The position numbers and the translations under genes were made by a program. A stretch of DNA of 32,000 nt from Marinicellulosiphila megalodicopiae (GTDB lineage: Bacteria; Pseudomonadota; Gammaproteobacteria; Pseudomonadales; Natronospirillaceae). Numbering within the stretch: the first letter of the stretch is position 1; the number at the start of each line of letters is the position of its first letter. A model generated the notes under the pieces. That model did not search any database. It had not been told where the DNA came from and saw nothing but the letters and a program-made list of their open reading frames with translations. Shown piece after piece: positions 615 to 27,029 of this stretch. The stretch covers positions 4,282,450-4,314,449 of the forward strand of contig NZ_AP023087.1 in NCBI RefSeq assembly GCF_045862395.1, in the 5' to 3' direction.

Positions 615-616
615 AA

Positions 617-1006: not shown

Positions 1007-1021
1007 CCGGATACTACGGAA

Positions 1022-1128: not shown

Positions 1129-1133
1129 TTACA

Positions 1134-1658: not shown

Positions 1659-1689
1659 CCTAATTTTAGTTGATTAATGTAGATATGAA

Positions 1690-3540: not shown

Positions 3541-3579
3541 GTCTGACTATACCGTCTGACTAAACCTTCTGACTATGCC
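3541..3579. repeat. Triple 13-bp direct repeat
   Basis: Three head-to-tail units: GTCTGACTATACC, GTCTGACTAAACC and TTCTGACTATGCC. They lie in a roughly 650-bp region with no ORF. Confidence 0.85.
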
Positions 3580-3755
3580 GATTCAGGTCAACCAAATAGC
3601 CAGCCACTTTAATTGTTGAAACATCGATTATTGCTAATTTATATTTAGTAATGTCCGTTGAACAAAGATACCCAAACAGCTGACGTAAAACTCATAATTC
3701 TTCCATTAGCGCGACAAGTCTAATAAATAATAATGATATTTTTTAACAAAATTAT

Positions 3756-4403: not shown

Positions 4404-4476
4404 TGGTTACTTGAAAGAGCATATCAAAAAAAATTTGAAATACACTATGACCATTGGATATAAATCACACACAAAT

Positions 4477-4512
4477 AAAAAAAGTCACAAAGATTACTCT
4501 TTGTGACTTTTT
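4477..4512 (-). terminator. Rho-independent terminator downstream of the GH16 gene (bidirectional shape)
   Basis: Perfect 10-bp stem AGTCACAAAG (4483-4492) / CTTTGTGACT (4499-4508). It is flanked by an A7 run, which reads as T7 on the minus strand after the hairpin, and by a T5 run. Confidence 0.65.
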
Positions 4513-4537
4513 AATTAAGCGTTAAATTTTATAAAAA

Positions 4538-7348
4538 TTATTCGCCTCTATAATGATCTAATGTAATTTTCAAAATACCACCACTTGCGCTGACTTGATT
4601 TGGACTAAATTTCGCATCGTTTTCACCAAAAGTCCAATTCGCTAGACTCCAACGGTTAGTATCAAGAGTATTAAAATCATCAGTCCACTGCAATACAAAA
4701 TTACCTGTGTTTTGATCAAGTGATGAGTATGACAAGTAATCTAATTCCATAGAAACTGGATACACAGAATCATCAATCGCTCCCACCCACTCTGCAATAT
4801 TTGCAGGCCAAAGGTTTAAACGTATTCCTTGCAGACTTGTTAAACTTGCGTATTGATCAACTGTCATATTTTCTTTTCCTGCTCTAGACAAAAATTGTCC
4901 ATCTAAGAAAAATTCAACACGATCTGGATACCAATCCATACGGTACAAATGAAAATCATCTGCTAAAGATTGTACTTGTGTATGCAGTGCATCACTTGTA
5001 ATACGCTCTGACGCTTTACCAGTAATAATATTCGTTTGTAAATCAACGGCATTATTTTTACCTAACACCTCCATATCAATTTCTTCCCAAGGCTCAGGAT
5101 CGACTTCACTGCCATTTTTGTAAGTAAAATAACCATTAACAATACCACTACCTTTTGCCGCTTTCATTCTTAATTCAATACTACCGTATAGATATAGATC
5201 TTCGGAGTAGATTTCGCCGGATGAATATAGCTTGTCATCGTTTAACGAATAATCAACTTCTTTAGGTGGCGTTACAATAACCGAACCGTCCGATTTTGAA
5301 ATTTCTAAATATTTAATTCTGATCGCTTCTTCTTTATATAGTTTTGGAAGATTTAAAGCAGCAAACTGATTATTATCACTTTGTTGTGTACCAGTTAAAT
5401 AATTACGGTAAGTATTTCGCGATTTTGTTTCAGCAACAAAACTCATGTCCGATGGAACCAAATCTTTTACATCATTAAAAGAAACAGTTTGTACACCCCA
5501 GTTTGCAACTTCTTCACGATAAATTAAACTGCTCACTGGCACGCTAACTCTTAGCCATTGATCATGGTAATCACGATCAATCGTTAAATTAATTGTGCCA
5601 TGAACATCACCTTGCGTCGCATAATCATCACCAGGAATAGGATCAACGCCGTCGTAGTTTAATTGGATATCTAAGTAAAATTCACCATCGTCAAATTCAT
5701 CAAGTTGCGCTGAGGTTAAACCACTATATGCACTGCGAACTTCTGTATTAGTTGGTAATACTGAGTTTGCAGAATCGATATAAATATCCATTGTGATCGT
5801 ACCTAAATCTGCAAACGATGCATTATCATTTGAAACTGGGAATTTAAATCCATTACCATGCTGTGAATCCCAATCTGTATATTTTTTCACTAGAATATTG
5901 TTGATTGATTGTGCACCGTTACAGTTAGCATTCGCGGTATAGCCTTTATCAATCACGTAGTCAGCCGTTGATTGAGCGATACCATCCCATTCTGTTGCAT
6001 TAGAATTCACATGACTCCAATCGTTATTGATGTTTGACATAGAGCCATCAACCAATAAATATCCGTCATGATCAATTACAGGATTTAAACCACATGTATT
6101 TATTGCATACAGTTTATGTTGAGCGCCTGCTGGAAGTGCAATTAACGAATAACTTTCATCTCCAGTTGTGACTGCAGCTTCTACTGTAATCATCACAGGT
6201 GTTTCAATTGTATTAATGCTATCTTTGACAGTAAACGTAGCAGTATACACACCTTCATTTACAATTGTGGTAGTTGCAGTTTCGCTATTAAATGCTTCAT
6301 CATTTATTAACCATGAATAGCTTAAATTTGCATCATCTGCATCGGTTGCTGTTCCAGAAACAGTAAATGACTGTCCTGCTGTAACTGTGTAACTTGAATT
6401 AACGCTCACAACGGGTGCCACATTTAATTCAACTAACACGCTGATTGTTTTTATAGTTGGCTGATTTATTGAATCATCTGCCGTTAACTCAACTAAAAAA
6501 GTTTGGCTTGGTTGAGTTAAAGAAAAAATATGAGTTGGATTTTCTAAAGTTGAATCTCCTCCATCTTTAAAATCCCAATAATAGGTTATGCCATCACTTT
6601 CAGGATCAGAGGCATTTGCCATAAAATCCACCGAAACGGTATCAATAGTTTTTACACCAATTTGAAATGAAGGATTAGCAACAGGCGGATAATTTACTCC
6701 AACTTGTTTAGCAGGTACTGTAACTTCAACCATTTTAGTAGCTTTATTATTATCAGTGTCTGTTACGCTTAGTTCGACATTATGCACTACTATTGAATCA
6801 CCTAATACATAGTCATGAATTGGGTTTTCTAAACTTGAATCATTACCATCTTTAAAGTCCCAAAAATAAGTTAATTGATCGCCATCTGCATCTGCAGCAT
6901 TTGCTGTAAACGTAGCAGAGCCAGTCGAGGAAATTTGAACAACCGGATCAAGTGTAGGTGTCCTATTTTCACTTGAAGTAACAGCAGGAACAAATACATT
7001 TACAATTTTAGATTTAAATTCTCCTTTACTGTCATACACAGTTAATTCAACTTCATAAGTTGCATCCTCATTCAATTCAGGAAATTTATGTTCAAATGAT
7101 GTTGCGCTTGATGATGTCGGTGAACCATCTTTAAAATTCCAGACATAAATTAAACTGTCGCCATCAGCATCGAATACTGTTGGGTTAAGTGTCACTGTAT
7201 TATTTACTGCTGTTGTTGTGTTAAAACTAACCACAGGGGCTGCGTTATCTTCAGTATTTGTATTATTTGATGTTGACTCAGGATCAACACAACCTACGCC
7301 TGCAAAAATTGCAATGCTGCTGGCCGCACAAAGCGCTTTAAAGTTCAT
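4538..7348 (-). CDS. Secreted or lipoprotein multi-domain glycoside hydrolase: 4 PKD-like repeats, an unassigned middle region and a C-terminal GH16 beta-glucanase (laminarinase-like) domain
   Basis: The N-terminal signal has a Cys (AIFAGVGC). The PKD-type motif recurs as YVWNFKDG, YFWDFKDG, YYWDFKDG and YSWLINDE. The GH16 catalytic motif EEIDMEVLG (ExDxE) is near the C-terminus. Confidence 0.9.
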   Translation of the reverse strand: MNFKALCAASSIAIFAGVGCVDPESTSNNTNTEDNAAPVVSFNTTTAVNNTVTLNPTVFDADGDSLIYVWNFKDGSPTSSSATSFEHKFPELNEDATYEVELTVYDSKGEFKSKIVNVFVPAVTSSENRTPTLDPVVQISSTGSATFTANAADADGDQLTYFWDFKDGNDSSLENPIHDYVLGDSIVVHNVELSVTDTDNNKATKMVEVTVPAKQVGVNYPPVANPSFQIGVKTIDTVSVDFMANASDPESDGITYYWDFKDGGDSTLENPTHIFSLTQPSQTFLVELTADDSINQPTIKTISVLVELNVAPVVSVNSSYTVTAGQSFTVSGTATDADDANLSYSWLINDEAFNSETATTTIVNEGVYTATFTVKDSINTIETPVMITVEAAVTTGDESYSLIALPAGAQHKLYAINTCGLNPVIDHDGYLLVDGSMSNINNDWSHVNSNATEWDGIAQSTADYVIDKGYTANANCNGAQSINNILVKKYTDWDSQHGNGFKFPVSNDNASFADLGTITMDIYIDSANSVLPTNTEVRSAYSGLTSAQLDEFDDGEFYLDIQLNYDGVDPIPGDDYATQGDVHGTINLTIDRDYHDQWLRVSVPVSSLIYREEVANWGVQTVSFNDVKDLVPSDMSFVAETKSRNTYRNYLTGTQQSDNNQFAALNLPKLYKEEAIRIKYLEISKSDGSVIVTPPKEVDYSLNDDKLYSSGEIYSEDLYLYGSIELRMKAAKGSGIVNGYFTYKNGSEVDPEPWEEIDMEVLGKNNAVDLQTNIITGKASERITSDALHTQVQSLADDFHLYRMDWYPDRVEFFLDGQFLSRAGKENMTVDQYASLTSLQGIRLNLWPANIAEWVGAIDDSVYPVSMELDYLSYSSLDQNTGNFVLQWTDDFNTLDTNRWSLANWTFGENDAKFSPNQVSASGGILKITLDHYRGE

Positions 7349-12466: not shown

Positions 12467-14302
12467 CTACAACGTTTTTAGATACTCAAGCAATGCCCAA
12501 ACACTTTGTTTATCATCACTCCAATCTAATTTATAAGTTTTACCATCTAAAGTAATGTCTTTATCATGTCCTGCATTACTAATTGATGGAGAACTTTGGG
12601 TATCAAATACATACCCTTCTTGTTCATCCCAATTATCCAATTCCCACTTAAACCCTACTAATTGAGTGTCGAAATCTAATTGGCTTTTTACAAATACATC
12701 AGGACGCTCATTTGGCACTAGCATATGATAAAGCGTAGGCACTGAACCATTATGCAAATAAGGCGCTTGCGCCCAAAGCCCAGGAAACGGCAATGCGTTA
12801 TATCCATTTTGCACTCTTGGTGGCAACATGACCTGTTTACTTTGCCCAACTAACGAAACCCCTTTATATTCTGCACAAGGCTGAACTTGCTTTCCTTCCA
12901 TTTCAATGGTGGTAGTTGGAGAACAATTTGCGTCACCTGCAAAACTTGCTTGCGCGCCGACTGTAATCACAGTGCCTGCCACTTTTGCACGCCCCATATC
13001 AGTTCCCATAATCGAATATACACGACCATTATTTGGTTGATGACAATCCGCACAGTTATCTTTGAATAATTGCTGTCCTGTTTTTGCTAGATCCACATCA
13101 ACGTCAAATGGATAAATAGCAGGTGGTAGTTTTTGCAATACTTTTTCAGCATGGGCTGAAACACTGATATCAATATTATCAAATCCTAGTGTAATTTGAG
13201 CAGCAATGTTTTTATACATTGGTAACGGGATATGACCATTCCATTGACCGCCACCATTTATTAATCGTGTTTCATCTTCATTCCAAACTGGATCGTGAGA
13301 GTCTTGATCCCATACAACCATTATGTCTGTCACACCATGACTGGCTGGCATAACTAATGGTGCAATTAACTTAGTTGTCATCTTTTCATCAAAGGTTTGA
13401 AATGCTGTGGCCGCATTAAACCCAATGGCATCTTCCATGCCGGCGAATCCAGAATTAATTCTATCTTTAATATTTGGATACAGTTTTTCGGTTAATGTCA
13501 CCCAACTTGCATACACGTTTTCTTGGTGTGTCACAAATTCAGCGATAATATCTGTCGCATCATTTTTAAATAATTGAATTTGAGCTGCCTCATAATTTGC
13601 ATCAAATACTCTTCCGTCGTATTGATAATTATTGTAAAAATAATTTGGATCTTGAGCCTCTACTTTATCTAGCGCGGTTAAAAATGCATCCACTACTAAT
13701 TGTTTTTTGGCAGACTCGTCAGTTTCATTGCCATAAATTTTATTTAAAGATTGGACAATACGCTCCCGATAACCAATCACGTTAAATTCAGAATTGATAC
13801 CGCCATCTAAATATTCAAACTCACCACTTGGTAATCTAACTCGACCAATATGACACCCTCCACAGGTAAACGAGGCGTAATCAATATCTGCAGTTAAATC
13901 TTTTCTCACTAAACCAGTAAAGCCAATTCCACGTGGAAATGGATACCCTACTAAGCGCTCATCATGAAACAATCCCATAACCGATAAAAAATTATCTTCA
14001 TCACCCCAATATTCAGGTGCAACTTCAGGCAATAATTTTAAGACAATCAAGGGAATACCATTGGTTTCGCTCACTGGAAAGTTTGCAAAATGATCATAGT
14101 TTACTTGGAATGTATCAATATGATCGGCAATATCCGCACGACGCTTTGCTTGAGCAAGCACCCAATCTTTAGGTACTGGTTTTACATAAGTGGATTTAGG
14201 TGCTTCTAACCGACTATCAAATAAACCACTTACTTTACCGTAAGCGAGTAATCCAATAATAGGCAATACAACAGCCGAAATTTTAAACAGAGGGTGATTC
14301 AT
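12467..14302 (-). CDS. Di-heme cytochrome c peroxidase-like protein (large form, membrane-anchored or exported)
   Basis: Two CxxCH heme c motifs (FTCGGCHIGRV and NCADCHQP). The CCP/MauG-like distal motif is WAQAPYLHNGSVPTLYHML. It has an N-terminal hydrophobic anchor and ends EYLKTL. Confidence 0.8.
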   Translation of the reverse strand: MNHPLFKISAVVLPIIGLLAYGKVSGLFDSRLEAPKSTYVKPVPKDWVLAQAKRRADIADHIDTFQVNYDHFANFPVSETNGIPLIVLKLLPEVAPEYWGDEDNFLSVMGLFHDERLVGYPFPRGIGFTGLVRKDLTADIDYASFTCGGCHIGRVRLPSGEFEYLDGGINSEFNVIGYRERIVQSLNKIYGNETDESAKKQLVVDAFLTALDKVEAQDPNYFYNNYQYDGRVFDANYEAAQIQLFKNDATDIIAEFVTHQENVYASWVTLTEKLYPNIKDRINSGFAGMEDAIGFNAATAFQTFDEKMTTKLIAPLVMPASHGVTDIMVVWDQDSHDPVWNEDETRLINGGGQWNGHIPLPMYKNIAAQITLGFDNIDISVSAHAEKVLQKLPPAIYPFDVDVDLAKTGQQLFKDNCADCHQPNNGRVYSIMGTDMGRAKVAGTVITVGAQASFAGDANCSPTTTIEMEGKQVQPCAEYKGVSLVGQSKQVMLPPRVQNGYNALPFPGLWAQAPYLHNGSVPTLYHMLVPNERPDVFVKSQLDFDTQLVGFKWELDNWDEQEGYVFDTQSSPSISNAGHDKDITLDGKTYKLDWSDDKQSVWALLEYLKTL

Positions 14303-14312
14303 AATTTATACC

Positions 14313-16136
14313 TTAAAGTGTTTTTAAATATTCAATAATAGCCATTGCACCTGGCTTATCATCGGACCAATTTAATTTGTATTCAATACCATTTTCATTC
14401 ACATCTTGGTCGTGACCTTTATTTGAAAATGTTTCAAAACTTTTTGTATCAAAAACATAACTATGCTCTGCTGATACGGTTTGATGATTGTCTTGTACCC
14501 ACTGATAGCCTAAATATGTTTGATCATAGGTTAACTGACTTTTGATAAACGTAGTTGGTCGCTCATTAGGCACTAATAAATGATAAATAGTTGGCACCGA
14601 TCCGTTATGTAAATATGGAGCTTGAGCCCAAATTCCACTTAATGGTCTTGCGTTATAACCATGATGTTGATTATTAGGTGACATAATTAAATCTTCTTTT
14701 CCTTCTAAAGACACGCCACCAAATTGCGCACAGGGTTTCACTTGTTCACCATATAACTCAACCTTTGTTTGAGTAGAACATTCTTTAAAAAAACCACTGA
14801 TGCCGCCTTTTCTAATTAATGTATTTACAACATAACTACGGTCAAGATTCACACCAAGGTTACTATAAACCTTACCGTTAAATGGTTGATGACATTGCGC
14901 ACAGTTGTCTGCAAATAATGCTTCGCCTTTTTTAGCAAGTTCAACATTCACATCAAATGGATACACAGACGCAGGAAGTTTATCCAATAATTCGACAGAA
15001 AATGCAGACACTCTTAAATCATTATCATCTAAGCCAATTGTTAACTGTGCCGCCATATTACGATACATAGGAATAGGGATATTACCATTGTATTGCCCGC
15101 CACCATTAATTAACGTTTGATGAGAATTATCCCAATGCGCTTTTCTTTCATCTTGGCGCCATACAGTCATAAAATCCGTTATACCTGGAGAGCTCGGTAA
15201 AATGTGTTTGGAAAATAATTTTCCAAAAAAAGTCGAATGGGCATCATTATATGAATTAACTGTAAATATTCCGGTTGCATCTGCCATGCCGGGAAACCCT
15301 TCTAAAGAACGTGTCTGGAATCCCTTGTAATTTTTATCTAGTAACGCAGCATAACCGGTATAATCTTGCGTGGTAGTTTTATAAAAATCACCAATTAACG
15401 ATCCAGATTTCTCAATAAAAAGTTTAATTTGATTTTTTTCATATGCCAAATCAAAGTTAACTACATCATTTTTATATTCATTATAAAAGTAACTATCACT
15501 TACGGATATTGCTTTTTCAAGTGCTGTTAAAAATGCATTTTCTAGTAATTGTTGCTGTTTAATCGGATCAGATTCATCTCCTATTATTTTTTGAAGGGTT
15601 TGATAAGTTTTCACTCGATAAGCAACAATATTAAATTCAGTATTCACGCCGCCATCAATATAATGAATTTTATTATTTTGATCTATCACGCGCCCAATAT
15701 GACAAGCGCCACAAGTAAAGGATGTATAATCTATTTTGCCCATAGGCTCAATTCTAGCTAAGCCACTTATTCCTATACCACGAGCTATTGGATAATTTTC
15801 CTGCCTTGTATCTTTAAATAACCCTACGACATCTAAAAAGTTTTCTTCACTGCCCCATAATTCTGGTGCAATAATAGGTAATAATTTTAAAATAATGAAA
15901 GGTGTTCCATCTGTTTGGCTAAAAGCATAATCGGCAAACCAATCAAATGCTTCTTGATTATCTGCAATATATGATTCTTTTTGCTGTATTTTTTGTTGCT
16001 GAAATTCAGACCAATTTTGTGTAACAGGTATTACAAATGGTTTACCTGTTGGGGATGCTAATTGTTTTGTGGGAATTGCTTTATATATTGTGATGCCTAC
16101 CAATAAAAACATGGCAATTAATAATATTTTTTTCAT
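14313..16136 (-). CDS. Di-heme cytochrome c peroxidase-like protein, tandem paralog of 12467..14302
   Basis: FTCGACHIGRV, NCAQCHQP and WAQAPYLHNGSVPTIYHLL. It is collinear with the 611-aa neighbour along its whole length and ends EYLKTL. The gap to the next gene is 10 nt. Confidence 0.8.
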   Translation of the reverse strand: MKKILLIAMFLLVGITIYKAIPTKQLASPTGKPFVIPVTQNWSEFQQQKIQQKESYIADNQEAFDWFADYAFSQTDGTPFIILKLLPIIAPELWGSEENFLDVVGLFKDTRQENYPIARGIGISGLARIEPMGKIDYTSFTCGACHIGRVIDQNNKIHYIDGGVNTEFNIVAYRVKTYQTLQKIIGDESDPIKQQQLLENAFLTALEKAISVSDSYFYNEYKNDVVNFDLAYEKNQIKLFIEKSGSLIGDFYKTTTQDYTGYAALLDKNYKGFQTRSLEGFPGMADATGIFTVNSYNDAHSTFFGKLFSKHILPSSPGITDFMTVWRQDERKAHWDNSHQTLINGGGQYNGNIPIPMYRNMAAQLTIGLDDNDLRVSAFSVELLDKLPASVYPFDVNVELAKKGEALFADNCAQCHQPFNGKVYSNLGVNLDRSYVVNTLIRKGGISGFFKECSTQTKVELYGEQVKPCAQFGGVSLEGKEDLIMSPNNQHHGYNARPLSGIWAQAPYLHNGSVPTIYHLLVPNERPTTFIKSQLTYDQTYLGYQWVQDNHQTVSAEHSYVFDTKSFETFSNKGHDQDVNENGIEYKLNWSDDKPGAMAIIEYLKTL

Positions 16137-16164
16137 TTTATTTTTCTTATCGTTATTATTAAAT

Positions 16165-16190
16165 AAAAAAGCCTCTCATAAGAAAGGCTT
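16165..16190 (-). terminator. Hairpin plus T-run between the P450 gene and the downstream di-heme genes (possible internal terminator or attenuator)
   Basis: On the minus strand: AAGCCT-ttcttatgag-AGGCTT followed by TTTTAT. The stem is only 6 bp. Confidence 0.4.
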
Positions 16191-16202
16191 AATAGGGTTA
16201 TC

Positions 16203-17534
16203 CTATTTCCATTTTAATTTGTAATCTTCTGGGAAAGGCCCATCTTTATAATCCATCTCAGATGCAGATTGAATATCTTTTCGCATTAAAACCTGCTTTA
16301 CCATTTCAGGAATCATTGCCATTCCTATGTATTTACCCACACAGTCGTGAGATGCAAATCCATAGTTAAAATTATGATACCAATTACGATTTGCATTAAA
16401 TTCTTCAGGATTTTCATAAGAATAATCATCAAACATTGCAGACTGAGTTAACGTTAAAACATTGGTTCCTGATGGAATTTTTGTTTCACGATCCGTGCCT
16501 TTTGCTATGGTGTAATCCATTGATGTTTGACGAAATAGATATGGGCTAATCGGTACAAATCGTAAAGCCTCCCAGACCATCGCATCAATTTTATCTGTAT
16601 TAGAATCAAGAGATGCCGCTTTGGCTTGTTCAAATAATTCAGGACGTTCAATAAAAAAGTTAATCACTTGCGCAACGGCTTGTGAGGTAGTTTCTACGGC
16701 ACCAATTAATAAGCCACCAGCGTTTGTACCAATACGCGTTAATGGAAAATCAACTTGAGGAGCGAATGAGCTACGCAACATACGTTTTACAATATCATCT
16801 TTAAATTCATATGCTGGCTTTTTAGCGATGGCTCTAAATATATTTAAAACTTGTACAGCACGACCCAATAACCGATCTTTGATTTGTACCGTTAGAATTT
16901 TACGAATCATTAACACAGTAACATAATCGACTAATTCTTTAGAACACTGTGCATGAATGTCTACAATTTCATCAAATCGCTCTTTAGAATTTAAGTCAAA
17001 TGGCTGATTATGGAATGTATTATATTGATTCCAATATGACCATTTTAATAATTTTTTACGACTAATTCCGTCCAAACCAAAATATTCTTGAACTAATATC
17101 GCAGGAACCATACGACAATATTCATTTACAATTTCAATTTCTCCGTCGGCATCATCCAAAATTTTCTTAGATGAATCACGAATTAATTTTCTAATTCTTG
17201 GAATATCTTCGCGATTTAACATACCTTGCATAATTGATTTTTCACGATAATGTAGCGCATCATCATCGTGTGCCATTAAATATCCAGGTTCAGTATCAGT
17301 GACACCCATCTTTGGTTTATATAACGCGTTGGTAAAAATCGTCGGCATTTGTAATGCATCACGAACATCTGTAAATAATGCAAGTAACGTACATTCAGGC
17401 GTCACCAATACTGGACGTTCCTCTCGTAACTGTTTAAAAAATGGAAGCGGTTCATCATGCATCCATTTTTTCACTAATGGAAATTTGTCCGCATCAGCAG
17501 CGGCATCAAATAACTCAAGATAATTTGTAGTCAT
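16203..17534 (-). CDS. Cytochrome P450
   Basis: Heme-thiolate signature FGFASHDCVGKYIG (FxxGxxxCxG), I-helix AGGLLIGAVETTSQ, and K-helix EALRF (ExxR). There is no signal peptide. Its start lies 10 nt after the upstream stop. Confidence 0.9.
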   Translation of the reverse strand: MTTNYLELFDAAADADKFPLVKKWMHDEPLPFFKQLREERPVLVTPECTLLALFTDVRDALQMPTIFTNALYKPKMGVTDTEPGYLMAHDDDALHYREKSIMQGMLNREDIPRIRKLIRDSSKKILDDADGEIEIVNEYCRMVPAILVQEYFGLDGISRKKLLKWSYWNQYNTFHNQPFDLNSKERFDEIVDIHAQCSKELVDYVTVLMIRKILTVQIKDRLLGRAVQVLNIFRAIAKKPAYEFKDDIVKRMLRSSFAPQVDFPLTRIGTNAGGLLIGAVETTSQAVAQVINFFIERPELFEQAKAASLDSNTDKIDAMVWEALRFVPISPYLFRQTSMDYTIAKGTDRETKIPSGTNVLTLTQSAMFDDYSYENPEEFNANRNWYHNFNYGFASHDCVGKYIGMAMIPEMVKQVLMRKDIQSASEMDYKDGPFPEDYKLKWK

Positions 17535-17544
17535 GATTCACCCC

Positions 17545-19692
17545 TTATAATGTTTTCAAATATTCAATTAAATCCCAGCGCTCTTTTTCAGATAACGCAG
17601 GTAATACTTCACCATTGTTTTGAGCAGTTTTTCCAGCACCGTATTCGTGCCCTGTGTTCATGTCACCAACACGAGTGGTAATAAATGCACTGCCATCATA
17701 ATCTTTTGATTTAAATCCAACTCGATTAGCGTCAAACTCACGACTGCCAACTACAAATTCATCTGGTCGATATTCACCCTCAGCAGGATCAGTGTCTAGT
17801 TTTTTAGGTAATAATAAATCGTATAAAGTTGGAACCGAACCATTATGTAGATAAGGAGCAGTAGCCCAAATTCCATTTAAGGCACGACCTTTATAAGCCA
17901 ATAATGAACTGTATGGGTTAGAAGTTGTATCAGCAACATAATTACCTTTTTTAACGGTTTCTGGCATTTTATTTTCAAAAAATGAAGACCCCAAAACATA
18001 CAAACGATCTAACCAACGACGTATAAAGAACTTATCAGGGTCGGGTGTTGCAATCACTCCTTTTGTTGCAGAAGTTAATATTTGCAATACAGGTGCGTCC
18101 TCACTAATAAATACATCACCAACTCCTGTTATAGATTGAACAGTGTGCTGAAAATTACCAGATTTACCTGTTGCCATCACACCATTTATAGCAGCTGCTT
18201 TATCAGTACCGACTAAGTTTATATCCATCATATTTGCGATGATGATTCTGTCCGCATTATTTCGATCGACCACTTCGTGACATGATTGACAGTATTGAGC
18301 ATAAACTAGCTGTCCACGTTCTGCTTTAACTTGATCGATTTCACCTAATATTTCTTGTGGCCAAACTGGTGACTGCAAGCGTTTAAGTTGAGCTTCTAAA
18401 CGGCGTAAATTTGTGACATCGATTGAAGATTTAAAATTAACTACTTCGTTTTTATTTTTTTGATCGGTTATTAAAGTAGATAATTCAAATCCATTAGGCT
18501 CATGTGATGTCCAATCTAAAATGCCAAACACACCAATCACTTCTCCGGTATTACGACCAAGCGGCCCAACACCTGCATTATTTGCTACACCATTCCACTG
18601 AGTATAATCTGCCTGTCCTATATCCCATAAAAATGGATAGCTCACTGGAGCATTTGGTTCATTAAAAATACTATTACGTACTCGTAATAAATCACGTTGA
18701 TTTAAACCTGGGTATCCTGGTTCTGTAGATGCTAATCGATCAAGTACCAATCCAAACTGTTTATCCACAATAATATTTTCATTTACGCCTTCAAGTACTA
18801 AATCGATTTGATCACGAGTTAAAACTCTACGACGTTCGCCGTTAGTTCCTGGTGCCGTGACCATTTCCATGGTATTGGCCAACTGCTGTTTGTTAATCAT
18901 ATGCTGTAATACACGGTTATAAATTCGTCCAAATGCATCTAGGCGACCATAACCATAATCGATATGACTGTGGTTTACTGTATTGTATAAACTGATTGTT
19001 TTTAGCCATTGCTCAGTTGACTCAATAACTTTAGCTTCTTTTTTAAAGTCATTATTACGTGCTAAAACAGTTTCAACATAACGTGTTTTTTTAGCTTCAT
19101 CTGCTAACGTGGCACGCATTGATTTTTCAATTGCAGTTAAAAAGCCAACCATATCGGCCATTGCTGGACCGCCATCAATACGAATTGCCGATGTGATACC
19201 ATCTTTTGTGAAATTAACTTGGTTAGTATGACAAGCAGCACAGGTGTAACCGATGTAGTCATTTCCCTGATATGTATCTTTAACTAAACCTACTGGTAAA
19301 CCATCTGGGTTTAAGAATGTTTCTTTTTGCGGTAAATACCGATACTTATCAATATTGTGGTTGTCACGTAACAATTTATTTGAATTTTCTTGCTCTAATG
19401 ACATAAATAAATCATATGGCATTAATGCTGAACCTTGAGTGGTATTATAAAACCAAAGGCTTTCTGCTTCTGTCCAACCTTGATCTAAATATACAGGGGT
19501 TGTAAAACTTTCCCCAAATTCACCATTTTCAAGTGCAATTGCACCTCGGTCGGGATCATCATCCCAGTTTTGGTAGGTTTTACCTGCAATTAATGCGATC
19601 ACCATTAATAAAATAATGACACCAACAATGCGCCCTGAGTATTTCAATAGGTAAAAAATTGCTGCGAAAATGGATTGGAAAAATGTAGCCAT
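17545..19692 (-). CDS. Di-heme cytochrome c peroxidase-like protein (715 aa, divergent member of the same family)
   Basis: YTCAACHTNQV, YCQSCHEV and GIWATAPYLHNGSVPTLYDLL. It has an N-terminal TM region (VGVIILLMVIALIAG) and ends EYLKTL like the other two. Confidence 0.8.
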   Translation of the reverse strand: MATFFQSIFAAIFYLLKYSGRIVGVIILLMVIALIAGKTYQNWDDDPDRGAIALENGEFGESFTTPVYLDQGWTEAESLWFYNTTQGSALMPYDLFMSLEQENSNKLLRDNHNIDKYRYLPQKETFLNPDGLPVGLVKDTYQGNDYIGYTCAACHTNQVNFTKDGITSAIRIDGGPAMADMVGFLTAIEKSMRATLADEAKKTRYVETVLARNNDFKKEAKVIESTEQWLKTISLYNTVNHSHIDYGYGRLDAFGRIYNRVLQHMINKQQLANTMEMVTAPGTNGERRRVLTRDQIDLVLEGVNENIIVDKQFGLVLDRLASTEPGYPGLNQRDLLRVRNSIFNEPNAPVSYPFLWDIGQADYTQWNGVANNAGVGPLGRNTGEVIGVFGILDWTSHEPNGFELSTLITDQKNKNEVVNFKSSIDVTNLRRLEAQLKRLQSPVWPQEILGEIDQVKAERGQLVYAQYCQSCHEVVDRNNADRIIIANMMDINLVGTDKAAAINGVMATGKSGNFQHTVQSITGVGDVFISEDAPVLQILTSATKGVIATPDPDKFFIRRWLDRLYVLGSSFFENKMPETVKKGNYVADTTSNPYSSLLAYKGRALNGIWATAPYLHNGSVPTLYDLLLPKKLDTDPAEGEYRPDEFVVGSREFDANRVGFKSKDYDGSAFITTRVGDMNTGHEYGAGKTAQNNGEVLPALSEKERWDLIEYLKTL

Positions 19693-20373
19693 ATCAATAT
19701 CCCTGTCATGCTTACCTGCACGAATTTATTGTTATTGTTTTAAGAAAGTCACTAGGTCTCGGACTTTGTTTGCGGTTCTACTGGCACCAGCGCTTTACTT
19801 TTACCAAGCAGATTAATAAATATACAAGCCGTATAATTATTTAGCTAAAATAACCGATTAGGCTTCTGAAATCTAGCACTTTTTGAATGGCGTTAAATAG
19901 AAAGGGGGATACTTAAAATCATTAATAAACTCAATCTATTCAGCTCAAATGTTGATCAAATATAAAGCATATAACAATTTAGTTACTTCATAGTTTTAAG
20001 ATCATATAATTTATCAACCACTGTAATCACCCGCATTAAATCATCCGTTTTAAACTCTATATATAGATAAGTATCCACATATCGTAATGTTTTGAAATTA
20101 ATTCCATTACTCACTCTACTTTGATAGTAATCAAATAACAGGATAACAGGCCTTTATTTTTAAATTTCATTCATGTGTAAACTTCAATTATTTCTAAATT
20201 TTCATTACCTATCCAAAAAAATATATGCAATTAATACATTCTCCTAATATCTTAAAATGCTTGATTGAGCTAAAAGATACAAAACTTTATTAGAATAAAG
20301 TGCATTAAATGATTGTTTCATATTAGAACCACAACTAACTAAATTCAAAAAAGCTCAATTGTGGATATCTGTT

Positions 20374-20606
20374 TTTACAAACATACAAATAAAAGTGACC
20401 AACAAAATATTCAACATCGGACGCGACGGATTTGATGCAGGTCAAGATGCGTTTTCTTTTGGTATTAGTGCAAAACAATATGTGTCGATGGCACTTGTTT
20501 AAAAGCAACAACTACTCGTGATTTGACGGACATAGTTGGATTAGGTTGTTTGATTAAACTGGAAGGTGGCGGACGCAATGTTCGGTATCAGTTAAGTTTG
20601 GATTAG
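20374..20606 (+). pseudogene. C-terminal fragment of a Fic-family-type protein (winged-helix tail), frameshifted
   Basis: Hand translation gives ...NIQIKVTNKIFNIGRDGFDAGQDAFSFGISAKQYVSMALV* (stop at 20500-20502). In another frame it continues KATTTRDLTDIVGLGCLIKLEGGGRNVRYQLSLD*. This xxTAxRDLxxLxxxGxLxxxGxGRxxxY pattern is typical of Fic protein C-termini. There is no start codon and no Fic core. Confidence 0.5.
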
Positions 20607-21034
20607 GTTTGATTTGGTTTAGTGGATTTGATTTAGTAAATAAAGTTTTATTAGAAAAGTATTGTGAAGCAAGCGATTTGACCTAGAATCGAATCTCTTT
20701 TTTGTAGGTCGTATGCTTTCACACAGGGATGTGTGCAAGGGGCGTGAGCATGCTTAAAGGGATTTAAGTAGTAGAGCAATGTCTGGAACTAATTGCCGAG
20801 AACGCGGTAGCTTTGCTGCGAAAAACTAATCAGGGTTTTTGAGTGTCCATACCACACTAGTGACCCAAGCCCGAGCAGGTTTGTTTTGCGGATTTTAGAT
20901 GACAGATGGGCGCGCGACCCTTTGGCTCTTAATTATATAATGTATAATGGCGTTTATGAAAACAGCTAACTTATATTTTTATGTAATATGTTTTAAATGC
21001 ATATTGCATTACCACACCAAAATAAGAATTAATA

Positions 21035-21711
21035 ATGAGTAAGAAAAAAGATAAAAACGCCCGAAAAAAATAGTTCAAAAAAAAGCACTAAAACAAAAAA
21101 ATAAATCCATTTCGTTTCAAGCAAGTCAGGCTGTAAAAGAGAAAACAGCCGTTGAAAAATTAAATTACCGCATCACCGAGGATCCATTTTCAGTATCAAC
21201 GAAACAAACACTACCCGAAGAAATAGAAAAAAGGAAACAATATCTTTTTGATAACTTAGAAGAGCGCCCAGAAGATTTAATAGAAGAGCTCGAACTTTTA
21301 GTGACTCAATATCCTCAAAATAATATCCTCTCGAACTTTCTTTCTAATGCCTATCTATTAACTAAACAAATGGAAAAACATGAAGCATTATCAGAAAAGA
21401 CTTTTTCAGAGTGTCCAGAATACCTATATGGACGTGTTCATTGGGCAAAAATATTAATGGATCGCAACGATTACAAACAAGCCAATGAAGTATTTAACAA
21501 TACATGGGATTTAAAGAAACTGTACCCACAACGTAAAGTATTTCACATAACAGAGGTACTAGCATTTTATAGTACAGCTATTACCTACCATGAAAATATG
21601 CAAGAAGAGAGTGAATTTTTATTTGCCTTTGATGTATTAAGAGAGCTTGATGTTGAAGAAGATATATTATTACAATATTCCCCATCAGTTATGAAATGGC
21701 GTTTTCTTTGA
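21035..21711 (+). pseudogene. Hypothetical helical-repeat protein interrupted by a frameshift at an A7 tract (intact 3' ORF is 21301..21711)
   Basis: ATG 21035 reads MSKKKDKNARKK then TAG (21071-21073). The frame that contains the track ORF is open from 21055 and reads ...PKKIVQKKALKQKNKSISFQ... An A8 run instead of A7 (21064-21070) would fuse the two into one ORF of about 225 aa. Confidence 0.45.
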
Positions 21712-21846
21712 TGTGTGTTTAGTCGATAAATAGAAGGCTTTTATCTTTAAAGGGTCGGTTGTTTCGTAATACTTTTTGAGTGTCTATGTCAAAATAAAGG
21801 CCTGACCCCAAGGACTCCAGCACAGTCAGCTATTATATTTAACTTA

Positions 21847-22089
21847 AAACCAAGAAAAATTAGTTTCAAACATTGCCTGCAAGTATGGCTGTCATATACA
21901 CAATCAAATCGGCAGCCTGATGATCATATATTTAAATTAATATCAAAACGGCAAGTAGGTAATCGACCCGGAAGAATAGAGCCAAGAGCGATTAAACGAA
22001 GGCCAAAACCTTATAAATTATTGACCGTTACACGCGAAGTTGCAAGAGAGGATATTAGAAGAAATGGCCACCCAAAGAAACAGAAATAG
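21847..22089 (+). pseudogene. IS4-family-type DDE transposase, C-terminal fragment only
   Basis: The open frame has no start codon: ...KISFKHCLQVWLSYTQSNRQPDDHIFKLISKRQVGNRPGRIEPRAIKRRPKPYKLLTVTREVAREDIRRNGHPKKQK*. The VGNRPGRxEPRAxKRRPKxY tail is what I recall from IS4-group transposases. Confidence 0.55.
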
Positions 22090-22188: not shown

Positions 22189-23907
22189 TTATCCAAACGC
22201 TTCACCAAATAACCAATTAATAGGGTCTTTATCATACAACTCTAATATTACATTATTTTGAATGTATTGTTTTTCTTCTTTATTTAAAATATTTAATTTA
22301 TTGTCTTTGTCAAGAATCTCATCCAATGTGGATTGCCCCAAATTCACAAAATATTGTAATTCACTGCTTTTTATAATTTCAATAATAACTTTAAATATCA
22401 TTGATTTTTGTCTAGGGTCCATCTCGGAAAAAATACAACCATCATGTGCAATAAAACTTAGTAAGCTGGGATTTAATTGATAAAGAAGTAGATCGTAGCA
22501 GAAAATTTTAACCTCATTAATCCCTTGTGATCCATCTCGTGGAATTTGAGCATCAATATTAAACAAATATTTTGCGTCGTTGGTTTCACTTATCTCTAAT
22601 GAACCTCCGTGGTTTAAATAAAACTTCTTAACCAGTGCCCTGAACATATTCTCAATTGTCTCAAGAAAAATTTTAGAATCAACTAGATATTTTACAGCTT
22701 CAGCTTTTATATTTGCATTTTCCAAATCATATTGGCTTTTATCTTCTTTAAAACTTTGTAAAATCTGGCGATATTTATCCAACTCGCCAATTTCACTTTC
22801 AAAACTTCTTATTCTTTCGTTAATTGAGTTGTATTCTTCTAGCGCCCCTTTTGAATCTAGATCTTTTAAAATAGAATCTCTAATTCGCTCATTGTCTTTT
22901 AAATTAACATTCAAAGTATTCAATTGATCTTCTAATTCTAGTATTTCAGAATTAATTCTACTAGCTCTATTTTTTAATAAATTTTTATGGAAATCTGTAG
23001 CCTGATCTAATCGAATAGAGATTTTATCCCCAAAGAAAAACGATGCTTCTTCATAAATCTTCTTCACTTTTACAAGATCTATTTCTTTTACCCCCGCTTC
23101 ATCAAGGCTTTGTTTTTTCCGCCCCATACTTTTAATTACTTCATATATTTCATTTCTAATTTTGTTTATAATTTCAGTTTTAGCGTCAGCTTCTCTTTTA
23201 TATTTATCATAATTTTCAGCTATCACAAAATCTTGTTTATTCTTAATTAAAGTCTTTAACTCATCCTTTAAGTCATTTATATTACTCTCCCCTAACAAGC
23301 TTTCATAATTTTCTATAACACTTTTAGCTTTTTTTAACTTATTTAATTTTTCTTTTACAATTGATTTCTTAGTTACTAGATTAGTATTAATGCCTAGTAA
23401 TGCTAAGTTGGTATACATTTGATGATAATCTTGCTCTGGTCTACCTTGCTGGGCAATTATACTAGAATAGTAAGTCCCGCCATATCGCCTAGCAAATACA
23501 TTTAATATCTGCTTAAAGCTAACACCATTATAAAGCTCATTTTTAATGAATATTTTTTTAAGTTCAGATGGGTAATTTGATTTAACTATTTTTTCACCGT
23601 TTAAAATATGGTGTGATTGGCCGAAGTCTTTTTCAACCTTATAAGGCTTACCTTCATGCTCAAATTCTAAATAAAAAACACCATAACCAGAAAGGAAATT
23701 TTGAATTTTTTTCTCTGTAGGTTTCGTTGGGTCAAGATACGAGCCAAGCATTAAATGAATTAAGTTAAGTGAAAAACTTTTCCCTACTCCATTATATGTT
23801 TTTTTATCGGCACTCGTAAGTTGCAATCCTGCCAATATATTAAGTCCGCTTTCAAATTTTAACGTCTTAAATTTAGAATTATTAGAACTTAATTTTAATA
23901 ATTTCAT
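22189..23907 (-). CDS. Coiled-coil ABC/SMC-like ATPase (DUF2326/YydD-like); ATPase component of an ABC-3C-type system
   Basis: Walker A is TYNGVGKSFSL. A charged, heptad-rich insert of about 200 aa follows. The C-terminus has signature-like GSQGINEVKIF, Walker B-like LLSFIAHD, and DPRQ. It overlaps the upstream gene by 26 nt. Confidence 0.8.
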   Translation of the reverse strand: MKLLKLSSNNSKFKTLKFESGLNILAGLQLTSADKKTYNGVGKSFSLNLIHLMLGSYLDPTKPTEKKIQNFLSGYGVFYLEFEHEGKPYKVEKDFGQSHHILNGEKIVKSNYPSELKKIFIKNELYNGVSFKQILNVFARRYGGTYYSSIIAQQGRPEQDYHQMYTNLALLGINTNLVTKKSIVKEKLNKLKKAKSVIENYESLLGESNINDLKDELKTLIKNKQDFVIAENYDKYKREADAKTEIINKIRNEIYEVIKSMGRKKQSLDEAGVKEIDLVKVKKIYEEASFFFGDKISIRLDQATDFHKNLLKNRASRINSEILELEDQLNTLNVNLKDNERIRDSILKDLDSKGALEEYNSINERIRSFESEIGELDKYRQILQSFKEDKSQYDLENANIKAEAVKYLVDSKIFLETIENMFRALVKKFYLNHGGSLEISETNDAKYLFNIDAQIPRDGSQGINEVKIFCYDLLLYQLNPSLLSFIAHDGCIFSEMDPRQKSMIFKVIIEIIKSSELQYFVNLGQSTLDEILDKDNKLNILNKEEKQYIQNNVILELYDKDPINWLFGEAFG

Positions 23908-24115
23908 CTTGCACCTCCAATTTACCGATTATGTACAAATAATTTATACAATGTATTATTGTTTCAATGCTTATCTTTTTTGGGTAAGTTTTTAATAGCT
24001 CTGAATGAATACAATCAACAGTGAAATCTTTATGCTTTGCCAAATCTATAATGTATGAAGAAATACAAAATAAAGAATCTATTGGCTGTATGGATTTATT
24101 TGGAAGTATCATCAA
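23882..24115 (-). CDS. Small middle-component protein of the three-gene system
   Basis: 77-aa ORF whose ends overlap both neighbours (20 nt and 26 nt). Its size and position match the ABC-3C middle component. I recognise no motif. Confidence 0.6.
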   Translation of the reverse strand: MMILPNKSIQPIDSLFCISSYIIDLAKHKDFTVDCIHSELLKTYPKKISIETIIHCINYLYIIGKLEVQDEIIKIKF

Positions 24116-25109
24116 TTTTCACTCCCACTTCGCATATTTCAAAAAAATATGATATTAATATCCAAGAGATAATCATGCTATTAAAGTCTTTTACGTCCAT
24201 TAGGCTTTCAAGAGCGTTATTAAGTCTAATTATTATTTTATTGAAGTCTAAATTATACTCAGAAGCTTTGACGTGTAATTGCGTTACGCTAATTCTATTT
24301 AAAATACTTTTAGCCTCTTTACTGCTGAGCATTTCCACTAATATATTTTTATATAAATCTCCAATTACAAATTCTTGTAAATCGCTAGCTAAGTTGCCGT
24401 CATCAATCCCTTTTATAATAGTGGTATAATCTAAGCTTTTTTTAATTTCAAACGAAATTCTCTCATTTAATTTGTTTAGCTTAATTTTAGGATCAACTTC
24501 TATTGAGTTAAAGTCTTCATCATATGATGGTTGCGGTAAGTTATTTTTTGCTTTTAAAAGCTTTTTATATGTTAGGTTTAACACTATATGGTCAGTGTAT
24601 TTATCAGATTTATTCCTGAAGTATAATTCGCATAAATTTACCAGTCTATTTGTTTCTAAATTTTCTATAGATTTTATTAAATCACTCGAGTCATTTAATA
24701 TACTAATTAAATCTAGTTTATAAACTTCAAGTATAGAGTCTATTGTCTCTTTTTTTGGTCTGGATTTTTCTAATAAATAGTATATTGAAATATTATAGTC
24801 TTTATATTTTTTATCAGATAATGCCTTAAGAGAGTGAAGTATTTTTTCTTTAGACCTAGTCGTTGTGACTTGAATAAGCTCTTTTTTGGTAGTATCTATT
24901 AAGTCAATATATGGGGCATTATTGCACCCAAAATTTGCATTTTCGAACTTCCTGTCAAAAACCAAATTAAAAACATCTCTAAAATAATTTTCACCATGAA
25001 TATTTAAGCACTGATCATTTACAAATTGATGATGCTCAATATCTAGCCTAGTAATAGCCAGAATCCTGCTGATTGTATTAAAGGCCTCAATTCTATCCTG
25101 CACCATCAT
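24096..25109 (-). CDS. SMEK-like N-terminal domain protein with a helical C-terminal domain; putative effector component
   Basis: The N-terminal pattern LNIHGENYFRDVFNLVF...NNAPYIDLID...KELIQVTTTRS matches my recollection of the SMEK domain consensus (INIHAENFYRDLLN...AIDL.D....IAIQVTS). It is first in the operon. Confidence 0.65.
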   Translation of the reverse strand: MMVQDRIEAFNTISRILAITRLDIEHHQFVNDQCLNIHGENYFRDVFNLVFDRKFENANFGCNNAPYIDLIDTTKKELIQVTTTRSKEKILHSLKALSDKKYKDYNISIYYLLEKSRPKKETIDSILEVYKLDLISILNDSSDLIKSIENLETNRLVNLCELYFRNKSDKYTDHIVLNLTYKKLLKAKNNLPQPSYDEDFNSIEVDPKIKLNKLNERISFEIKKSLDYTTIIKGIDDGNLASDLQEFVIGDLYKNILVEMLSSKEAKSILNRISVTQLHVKASEYNLDFNKIIIRLNNALESLMDVKDFNSMIISWILISYFFEICEVGVKIDDTSK

Positions 25110-25184: not shown

Positions 25185-27029
25185 TCAGTCCAGCAAATCC
25201 AAGTTACGAACCGCCCCCTTATCAGCAGAAGTCGCCAACAAAGCATAAGCCTTCAAAGCGCCCGTTACTTTACGAGCTCTTACTTCCGTCGGTTTCCAAG
25301 CGTCTTTGCCTTTTGCTTCCATCGCATCACGACGAGTTTGTAATTCTGCATCGGTTAAGTCGACGTTGATTGAACGCGCTGGTATGTTGATTAAAATCGT
25401 ATCGCCTTCTTCTAGCAATGCAATTGCACCGCCTTGCGCGCCTTCTGGTGAAGCGTGTCCGATGCTTAGTCCAGATGTGCCGCCTGAGAAACGTCCGTCT
25501 GTTAATAATGCACAGTCTTTACCTAACCCTTTTGATTTAAGATAGGTGGTTGGGTATAACATTTCTTGCATGCCTGGTCCGCCTTTAGGACCTTCGTAAC
25601 GGATGATGACGACATCACCTTTTACAATTTTGTCGGCTAAGATGGCTTTTACTGCGCTGTCTTGAGATTCAAAAATACGTGCACGACCTGTAAATACGTG
25701 AATACTTTCGTCTACACCTGCTGTTTTAACCACACAACCATCAAGGGCGATGTTGCCTTTTAATACAGCCAAACCACCTTCTAATGAATACGCATGTTCT
25801 AAAGAACGGATACAACCATTTGCACGATCTCCGTCTAACGTCGGGAAACGTGTTGACTGGCTAAATGCAGTTTGAGTTGGAATACCTGCTGGGCCTGCAC
25901 GATAAAACTCTTTCACTTTAGGGTCAGTAGTTTGCATGATGTCGTATTTAGCTAACGCGTCTTTCATGGTTTTGCTGTGCACAGTAGATACGTCGGTGTG
26001 TAAAAATCCACCACGATCTAGCTCGCCCAATATCGCCATGATGCCGCCGGCGCGATGCACGTCTTCCATGTGATAAAGTGGAGAGTTTGGTGCAACTTTA
26101 CATAACTGTGGCACTTTACGTGACAACTCGTCCATGTGAGACAAGTCAAAATCGATGCCGCCTTCTTGTGCGATGGCTAATAAATGCAAGATGGTGTTGG
26201 TTGATCCGCCCATTGCAATGTCTAGTGTCATTGCGTTTTCAAATGCTTTGCGGTTTGCGATGTTACGCGGTAAAACTGACTCGTCATCTTGCTCGTAATA
26301 TTTACGAGTGATATCCACAATCGTACGACCAGCCTCTAAAAATAACTGTTCACGATCTGAGTGAGTGGCTAATGCTGATCCGTTACCAGGCAGCGCAAGG
26401 CCTATCGCCTCTGCTAAACAGTTCATTGAGTTAGCAGTGAACATTCCCGAACATGAACCACATGTTGGACAGGCTGAGCGCTCGTATTCGGCTACTTTTT
26501 CATCACTTGCTGAATCATCAGCAGCAATGACCATTGCGTCTACTAAGTCTAATTTGTTTTCTGAAAGCTTAGTTTTACCGGCTTCCATTGGACCGCCTGA
26601 CACAAAAATAACAGGGATATTTAAGCGCATTCCCGCCATCAACATGCCCGGTGTGATTTTGTCACAGTTTGAAATACATACAATCGCATCGGCACAATGT
26701 GCGTTAACCATGTATTCAACAGAGTCAGCGATGATTTCACGCGATGGCAAAGAGTACAACATACCGTCGTGACCCATTGCGATGCCGTCATCTACTGCGA
26801 TGGTGTTAAATTCTTTTGCTACGCCGCCTGCTTTTTCAACTTCGCGGGCTACTAGTTGCCCCATATCTTTTAAATGAACGTGCCCTGGTACAAATTGAGT
26901 GAACGAGTTTGCAATGGCAATAATTGGCTTTTGAAAATCGTCATCTTTCATGCCAGTGGCGCGCCACAATGCACGAGCACCCGCCATATTACGGCCTTCG
27001 GTTGAGGTTTTAGAACGATACTTTGGCAT
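25185..27029 (-). CDS. ilvD: Dihydroxy-acid dehydratase
   Basis: 614 aa, collinear with E. coli IlvD from [22 protein letters not shown] through [13 protein letters not shown] and [15 protein letters not shown]. Confidence 0.97.

Follow-up and report, generated by a model that had tools for sequence, protein, structure and literature searches.

ABC-three-component (ABC-3C) systems, type II Lamassu and DdmABC constitute one superfamily, according to reviews as well as primary papers. Several Lamassu members defend against phages with an abortive infection phenotype. This defense depends on all three components, LmuC included, and on an intact ATPase site and an intact active site in the effector. 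Cryo-electron microscopy (cryo-EM) of Lamassu complexes from Vibrio, Salmonella and Bacillus revealed an LmuA1B2C1 particle in which the effector, bound by way of its C-terminal domain, is sequestered as a monomer; DNA ends are sensed by the particle, and LmuA freed from it assembles into an active tetramer. Here, we analyze a three-gene cassette on the minus strand of Marinicellulosiphila megalodicopiae, at positions 22189 to 25109 of a 32,000-nt stretch of contig NZ_AP023087.1 (the window, in whose positions coordinates are given unless another locus is named). An earlier reading of the sequence alone (the original prediction) had proposed the cassette as an ABC-3C-type defense system whose effector chemistry and trigger were uncharacterized. 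The latter part is outdated at the family level, since Lamassu defense has been validated and both DNA-end sensing and tetramerization have been seen by cryo-EM. In our assessment, the locus (lmuA-lmuC-lmuB) is probably a "short type II" Lamassu (ABC-3C) cassette that is self-contained, was acquired horizontally and acts against phages by a release-and-oligomerize mechanism.

Further features of the superfamily bear on this assignment. DdmABC, a type II Lamassu, restricts both plasmids and phages, and Lamassu has been proposed to descend from SbcCD. A 2025 survey (Haudiquet et al., PNAS 2025, PMC12663957) places SMEK among the effectors specific to "short" Lamassu and describes the Walker B of short LmuB as degenerate and its zinc hooks as numbering from zero to two. 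The published consensus of the short-LmuB Walker B is hhhhD[Q/S/T/E], which is descriptive, not defining. SMEK/Mrr-like domains have also been described as nuclease effectors of one branch of short prokaryotic Argonautes (pAgo); in the Argonaute system of Kordia, the Mrr/SMEK domain is reported to be part of a guided nuclease, and its structure has been solved.

Gene layout and family assignments

The cassette spans 2.9 kb and consists of three overlapping genes in the order effector, small middle component and coiled-coil ABC ATPase:

24096 to 25109, minus strand: lmuA-like effector gene, 337 aa (open reading frame [ORF] with a Pfam SMEK_N match at 1e-25)
23882 to 24112, minus strand: lmuC-like middle component gene, 76 aa from an ATG start (77 aa if a TTG at 24115 is used)
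22189 to 23907, minus strand: lmuB-like ATPase gene of the DUF2326 (YydD) clade, SMC/Rad50 type, 572 aa
25110 to 25184, minus strand: 75-nt spacer from the ilvD stop codon to the lmuA start codon, containing a ribosome-binding site

An ORF listing reproduced the coordinates and strand of the three minus-strand ORFs as first proposed (24096-25109, 23882-24115 and 22189-23907), and the 26-nt overlap of the middle and ATPase genes (23882-23907) was exact. The 20-nt overlap proposed for the effector and middle genes holds only with the TTG start at 24115; with the likelier ATG at 24112, the overlap is 17 nt. This ATG is favored because the resulting protein start, MILPNKS, fits the consensus MILPTK of the ortholog alignment and because the closest relative (L099, 9796-9812) has the same 17-nt overlap of the two genes. 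A length of 76 aa is therefore probable for the middle protein. On inspection of the sequence, GGAG-type ribosome-binding sites were present upstream of both internal starts. All three ORFs (572, 76 and 337 aa) are full length relative to their orthologs, and the family-invariant columns are all intact in the window copy.

Profile searches recovered SMEK_N, MC6 and DUF2326, which upheld the ABC-3C reading. A chance occurrence is ruled out, because the profile E values are 1e-25, 4e-9 and 4e-24 and because the gene order is kept in 14 other loci. In PADLOC, the ATPase was called as candidate system PDC-M68B (5.9e-64, full length) and the effector missed PDC-M68A, a model that was matched by 19 of 35 effector orthologs (best, 1.1e-4), the window effector not among them.

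The effector falls into two parts:

24666 to 25073, minus strand: SMEK_N domain with a predicted PD-(D/E)xK-type nuclease fold, aa 13-148 of the effector (Pfam and NCBIfam)
24120 to 24608, minus strand: C-terminal all-helical domain, ABC-3C C-terminal domain (CTD) family CTD10, aa ~168-330 of the effector (assigned by transitive homology)

The SMEK domain that had been proposed for the effector N terminus was confirmed by both Pfam (PF21941, SMEK_N; 1e-25, 90.7 bits against a cutoff of 27) and NCBIfam (NF033859, SMEK_N; 4e-19, 68.2 bits against a cutoff of 30), and SMEK_N was present in every one of 166 effector homologs. Among 35 orthologs, the conserved residues of the domain are H38, E40, D45, D69, Q80-x-T82-T83-T84 and K89; E40 is conserved in at least 90%, and D69, Q80, T82 and K89 are invariant. 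These last five positions also align with the Kordia domain. In the AlphaFold model of the effector (mean predicted local distance difference test [pLDDT] score, 77.9), aa 67-72 and 77-82 form strands and aa 87-98 a helix, and E40, D69, Q80, T82 and K89 map onto this strand-strand-helix core. The N terminus thus fits a PD-(D/E)xK-type nuclease in both alignment and model, and the conserved residues would be expected to take the catalytic roles.

The same domain raised the question of a SPARMA-type short-Argonaute system. It matched the PADLOC model of an Argonaute-associated restriction endonuclease (1e-16) and, among solved structures, the "Mrr domain" of the Mrr-APAZ pAgo partner from Kordia jejudonensis (PDB 26bh_D; E values of 4.7e-10 for the sequence alone and 1.8e-18 for the 35-sequence profile). 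The effector, however, has no APAZ region, its C-terminal half being CTD10; no Argonaute gene is present, the two downstream genes encoding MC6 and DUF2326 proteins; and no Piwi/Argonaute-family gene was found in the neighborhood of any Pfam-annotated relative. The SPARMA identity is refuted by this domain architecture, and we give it practically no weight.

The C-terminal half of the effector had been described as helical and unassigned. The first attribute was borne out by the AlphaFold model; the second was not, as transitive homology assigns this half to ABC-3C CTD10. CTD10 (PF20275) was matched in 11 of 35 full-length effector orthologs, and the ortholog on a Vibrio plasmid scored 28.5 bits (Pfam cutoff, 28.1). 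In distant MC6/DUF2326 systems on plasmids of Streptomyces, Cupriavidus and Rhizobium, the effectors matched CTD10 at 1.7e-18 to 3.7e-13, and their N termini had neither SMEK_N nor any other Pfam match. When the Streptomyces and Rhizobium effectors were aligned with the window family by hhalign, only the C-terminal motifs aligned, with no N-terminal similarity; an hFFxxCD motif was common to the CTD of the window family and the distant effectors. The conserved terminal motif of the CTD is W316...F323-E324-x-C326-x-x-G329. In a Foldseek search with the effector model, solved LmuA chains ranked at the top but were nonsignificant. On the strength of transitive homology and modularity, the C-terminal half is assigned to ABC-3C CTD10, and in its domain content, with a variable N-terminal warhead joined to a C-terminal domain that is conserved, the protein has the architecture by which ABC-3C/LmuA effectors are defined.

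This modularity was established through the annotated plasmid relatives, not through CTD-only searches. A word-indexed search with the CTD alone returned chiefly short fragments without Pfam annotation, together with two SMEK-bearing proteins. An exhaustive CTD profile search yielded 40 clusters at 50% identity, of which the full-length ones (~325-347 aa) place the CTD as in SMEK effectors and the rest are fragments. Separately, proteins P0241-P0245 (195-222 aa) were seen to be nearly all CTD (E values of about 1e-60) and to have no SMEK domain. These could reflect truncation in gene calling, or they could be LmuA variants that lack an effector, comparable to the "clade O" of the literature.

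For the small protein, the expected ABC-3C middle component was found: it matched PF20293 (ABC-3C MC6) above the Pfam cutoff (4.3e-9; 36.7 bits, cutoff 27.2). Among its orthologs, MC6 was matched in nine of nine and MC7 in eight of nine, and the middle-component profile found no match among the sequences of solved structures.

The third protein has an ABC head that is split by a coiled coil:

23383 to 23907, minus strand: N-head of the lmuB-like ATPase, aa 1-175
23776 to 23799, minus strand: Walker A/P-loop TYNGVGKS, aa 37-44, with G42, K43 and S44 invariant
22627 to 23382, minus strand: antiparallel coiled coil of the lmuB-like ATPase, aa 176-427 (AlphaFold model)
aa 428-572, minus strand: C-head of the lmuB-like ATPase
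22438 to 22464, minus strand: degenerate Walker B LLSFIAHD-G, aa 482-490, followed by a D-loop (SEMD) and an R499-Q500 pair

The motifs read from the ATPase in the original prediction were all located: TYNGVGKSFSL (aa 37-47), GSQGINEVKIF (aa 459-469), LLSFIAHD followed by G (aa 482-490) and DPRQ (aa 497-500). The DUF2326 family that had been anticipated for this protein was matched by Pfam at 3.9e-24 over aa 427-568, and database sources name the ATPase "YydD (DUF2326 family)." Database homologs with 100% identity place the host in M. megalodicopiae, order Oceanospirillales. Likewise, the long helical insert said to split the head corresponds to AlphaFold helices at aa 176-427. The model (pLDDT, 83.6) shows a split ABC head and an antiparallel coiled coil of ~250 residues. 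A Foldseek search returned 114 matches at E values of ≤1e-3, and the 50 matches that were listed comprise chains of YydD, LmuB, Rad50 and the SMC family. The top match was Bacillus subtilis YydD (PDB 9a6c_A; 2.8e-23), and solved LmuB chains matched at 6.8e-13 and 1e-10. Against PADLOC LmuB (four or more models), 15 of 27 ATPase orthologs matched at up to 5e-6 and 5 of the 27 at up to 5.6e-11. A link of the window ATPase to LmuB is therefore likely, but the clade is divergent.

The conserved residues of the ATPase are G42, K43, S44, S460, Q461, G462 and D489. In the Walker B, Asp489 is not followed by Glu, and all 27 close orthologs share H488, D489 and G490 without variation; in the more distant DUF2326 relatives (Vibrio plasmid, Streptomyces and Rhizobium), the corresponding residues are His-Asp-Ser. 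The coiled coil (aa 176-427) has no cysteines in the window sequence and therefore no CxxC zinc hook. Its predicted apex (aa 287-317) ranks with the best-conserved regions of the protein (E287, A288, F290, F292, F306, H307, L310, R314 and R317), with a Phe-rich motif, E287-A288-x-F290-x-F292...F306-H307, placed where a zinc hook would sit. This conservation suggests that the apex is a functional docking or dimerization site.

A further observation was made on a relative. The ATPase of a Streptomyces sp. NBC_00212 plasmid (L095:3498-5264) has a full-model CTD10 match within its own coiled coil (aa 281-407; E value, 1.5e-28), which is stronger than that of its cognate effector. A CTD10 common to the effector and the ATPase arm was rejected for the window, since hhalign of the CTD and ATPase profiles gave a probability of 0.6%. 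BLASTP of the Streptomyces effector against the ATPase found no similarity, and the L095 match may stem from compositional bias or from a mixed Pfam seed.

Because the head is of the SMC/Rad50 type, a housekeeping complex for DNA repair or chromosome maintenance was weighed here as well. The ATPase model matches the heads of Rad50, cohesin, condensin and Smc5/6 at 1e-13 to 1e-7, and the proposed descent of Lamassu from SbcCD would agree with such kinship. The partners, however, are MC6 and SMEK-CTD10 proteins, with no Mre11/SbcD-like or kleisin partner; the coiled coil lacks the hook cysteines; and the cassette occurs patchily, in various phyla and on mobile elements, with no copy beside ilvD in 80 other species. 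A housekeeping role is thus very improbable.

Distribution, mobility and chromosomal context

The Lamassu assignment is accompanied by a conserved arrangement elsewhere. The same three genes, in the same order and with an lmuC/lmuB overlap of ~20-30 nt, were found in 14 of 14 other loci examined with upstream sequence. In a P2-like prophage (L002/L003, on the chromosome of Rahnella rivi and on a metagenome contig), the cassette has the replication gene gpA on one side and the portal gene on the other. Four copies are in integrase-associated islands (integrase/AlpA) of Marinobacter, an alphaproteobacterium, the closest metagenomic relative and another metagenomic contig; one further chromosomal copy has surroundings without obvious mobile-element genes. 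Plasmid copies were found in Arcobacter and Vibrio. On Vibrio alginolyticus plasmid NZ_CP135970.1 (L098, locus 265-6731), the SMEK-MC6-DUF2326 genes are directly downstream of a Gabija-like pair, an AAA_21/OLD-TOPRIM ATPase and a UvrD-type helicase, with which they form a small plasmid-borne defense island. Seven IMG/VR viral contigs carry the cassette, and a search of a phage genome collection found no relatives. As a side observation, the P2-like prophage stretch also holds cytochrome b-like and cation-efflux genes as cargo.

The closest relative has 70% nucleotide identity, and homology to it is confined to window positions ~25121-22183, that is, from 12 nt upstream of the lmuA start to 6 nt past the lmuB stop. 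Because the homology stops at the cassette edges, the three-gene unit is a transferable module. The cassette has been horizontally acquired.

Carriage by mobile elements also bears on the target of the machine. Instead of protecting the host from lytic phages, the same complex could act mainly on plasmids or rival mobile elements, as in plasmid elimination by DdmABC, or it could serve its carrier element in inter-element competition. Consistent with this, type II Lamassu DdmABC restricts plasmids too, and prophages, integrative elements and plasmids all carry the cassette. In the window, however, the only trace of a mobile element around the cassette is the insertion sequence remnant described below, with no intact element, and the Lamassu systems that have been tested protect against phages. 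We regard this role as a tentative possibility that is, on balance, doubtful; it and a phage role are not mutually exclusive and are compatible with one machine.

Base composition also counts toward the assignment as an acquired anti-phage cassette. The G+C (GC) content of the cassette is 0.284, compared with 0.362 for the rest of the window; the cassette is the lowest 2.9-kb stretch of the 32 kb, and 0.9% of sliding windows are as low. It had been claimed that the unit is much more AT-rich than the adjacent ilvD. The AT richness stands, but the contrast was overstated, as ilvD (25185-27029, minus strand) is itself unusually GC rich (GC, 0.459; third-codon-position GC [GC3], 0.39). Part of the difference is due to ilvD, because its GC is well above the window mean of 0.353. 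The GC3 of the cassette (0.22-0.26) is no different from that of neighbor genes. In the ilvD loci of 80 other species, all from distant taxa, neither the cassette nor any flanking gene of the window was found. The original prediction would have been weakened by a locus conserved in relatives and host-like in composition; what was found is absence beside ilvD elsewhere and the lowest GC of the window. Scans found no direct or inverted repeats bracketing the cassette.

Downstream of the cassette is an ORF-poor stretch of 2.5 kb, at the end of which lies the following feature outside the system:

21823 to 22080, plus strand: 3' remnant of an IS4-family transposase gene (tblastn, 51% identity; E value, 2.5e-24)

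The remnant corresponds to aa 369-458 of a 464-aa transposase, with the 5' four-fifths missing, and is ~110 nt from the lmuB stop codon. Together with the degraded element and the ORF-poor stretch, the lack of a recognizable promoter of its own inside the conserved segment would suit a silent or decaying passenger, that is, intact genes that are unexpressed or no longer functional in this host. Arguing against such decay, the ORFs are full length with every family-invariant column intact, ribosome-binding sites and coupled starts are preserved, and read-through transcription is possible since no terminator separates ilvD from the cassette. We therefore hold a silent passenger to be quite unlikely.

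Several results weigh against the Lamassu anti-phage assignment and should be set beside the evidence for it. No experiment on the SMEK/MC6/CTD10/DUF2326 subtype was found in the searchable literature. The C-terminal half of the window effector had itself no match among Pfam profiles. The window ATPase matched the PADLOC LmuB model at an E value of only 0.039, and sequence searches with the single ATPase, with a 27-member profile and with the C-terminal head alone found no solved LmuB, Rad50 or SMC chain. The best Foldseek match to LmuB (6.8e-13) was no better than that to cohesin (7.2e-13); because Foldseek is undiscriminating here, placement of the ATPase in LmuB proper, as opposed to a sister clade, rests on the ortholog matches and the literature. 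The invariant Gly after Walker B Asp489 falls outside the published D[Q/S/T/E] consensus, and given an Asp followed by this Gly, ATP hydrolysis by LmuB may be absent rather than slow. Finally, scans of the ilvD-lmuA spacer found promoter-like sites at chance level and no terminator-like hairpin.

The rest of the window consists of ordinary chromosomal genes, which include ilvD, a pfkB kinase, RoxA-like cytochromes and a P450. The ORF-poor part from 19693 to 21822 (2.1 kb) has one orphan ORF of 136 aa (21301-21711, plus strand), which has no Pfam match and is not homologous to the convergent 135-aa gene downstream of the cassette in the closest relative. An imperfect 40-nt direct repeat (20836-20875 and 21773-21812) brackets this ORF. 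For the stretch 19693-21822, no match was found in a plasmid collection and no family in Rfam, and neither Rfam nor tRNA scans detected RNA genes. At 12467-19692 (minus strand), three paralogous RoxA-like multiheme cytochrome c proteins (611, 607 and 715 aa) are interleaved with a cytochrome P450 (443 aa); this looks like an unusual oxidative gene cluster that is unrelated to the cassette.

Proposed mechanism

Gene structure, family assignments, folds, cassette conservation and presence on mobile elements were computed here; stoichiometry, trigger, the release-and-oligomerize switch, DNase chemistry and phenotype are carried over from relatives. By analogy with the solved Vibrio, Salmonella and Bacillus complexes, an LmuA1-LmuB2-LmuC1 particle is expected, in which the distal coiled coils, together with LmuC, would retain the helical CTD10 of the effector. 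Held by LmuB2-LmuC in this way, the SMEK (Mrr-like PD-(D/E)xK) nuclease would be kept monomeric and inactive. Once the LmuB heads and LmuC bind free double-stranded DNA ends or intermediates of phage replication, LmuA would be released, and this release would be gated by ATP binding and slow turnover at the degenerate Walker B (HD-G). Free LmuA would oligomerize via its CTD, pairing the nuclease domains, and the ensuing indiscriminate DNA cleavage would kill or arrest the infected cell (abortive infection).

The divergent features of the ATPase permit a variant of this scheme, in which the DUF2326/MC6/CTD10 clade is a mechanistically distinct Lamassu branch that combines a nonhydrolyzing, fire-once sensor with a Phe-rich apex replacing the hook and a filament-activated SMEK nuclease. 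With the invariant His-Asp-Gly Walker B, LmuB could bind ATP without hydrolysis and fire once; the Phe-rich apex could be a site of effector docking or arm dimerization in place of the hook; and SMEK might be activated by filaments, as reported for Argonaute-linked nucleases, and not by a closed Cap4-type LmuA tetramer. We consider a distinct branch of this kind unlikely, and the release-and-oligomerize scheme of short type II Lamassu is retained as the working model. The invariant Asp-Gly Walker B makes these ATPases a natural test case for whether Lamassu signaling depends on ATP hydrolysis or on binding alone.

Comparison with described systems

In a compact 2.9 kb, the cassette presents a clean and seemingly intact example of a catalogued Lamassu subtype, with a SMEK/Mrr-like nuclease, MC6, CTD10 and a YydD-clade ATPase. 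For annotation of the genome, it amounts to a small defense insertion downstream of ilvD in a marine symbiont-associated bacterium. Several groups of described systems serve as points of comparison.

Rad50/SbcCD and the canonical SMC complexes differ from the cassette in composition, the cassette having MC6 and SMEK-CTD10 partners in place of Mre11/SbcD or a kleisin and no CxxC hook. In SPARMA (the short pAgo of Kordia jejudonensis with its Mrr/SMEK-APAZ partner), the nuclease domain is homologous to that of the cassette (profile E value, 1.8e-18) and shares the conserved E, D, QxT and K positions, and in each system it serves as an effector that a nucleic-acid sensor restrains. The sensor there is a guide-loaded Argonaute acting through APAZ, whereas here it would be an SMC-like ATPase acting through CTD10 and the middle component. 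The same nuclease domain is therefore found under two unrelated sensors, and a comparison of the two could separate the rules of the effector from those of the sensor.

The YydB-YydC-YydD proteins of Bacillus subtilis resemble the cassette in their ATPase: DUF2326 has YydD as its founding member, and among structures the window ATPase matched YydD best. YydD is only 20% identical to it, and its partner in the PDB model is YydB, not a SMEK protein; the title of entry 9a6c_A describes an integrative model of YydD and YydB from cross-linking mass spectrometry. No defense phenotype of yydBCD was found in the searchable literature.

The SMEK short-Lamassu subtype of Haudiquet et al. (PMC12663957) and PADLOC candidate PDC-M68 share with the cassette a SMEK effector alongside a short LmuB-like ATPase, PDC-M68B being matched over its full length. 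The cassette, with its DUF2326/MC6/CTD10 make-up, is most probably this catalogued subtype.

The solved counterparts are short type II Lamassu/DdmABC, namely, LmuA-LmuC-LmuB of Vibrio cholerae and LmuACB of Salmonella enterica. The cassette differs from these in its effector nuclease, which is SMEK/Mrr-like as opposed to Cap4; in the sequence families of its parts, as CTD10, MC6 and the DUF2326/YydD-clade ATPase are not those of the solved systems and no solved chain was matched at the sequence level; and in its D-G Walker B. It agrees with them in gene order and gene overlap, in an SMC/Rad50-like ATPase (~570-600 aa) whose coiled coil is short and lacks a zinc hook and whose Walker B is degenerate, in a small middle component, in an effector with an N-terminal nuclease and a helical C-terminal docking domain, and in its location on mobile elements and in defense islands. 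The family has already been validated experimentally and structurally and the SMEK subtype has been catalogued; the cassette thus opens no new category of system and probably joins the short type II Lamassu as a SMEK-bearing member.

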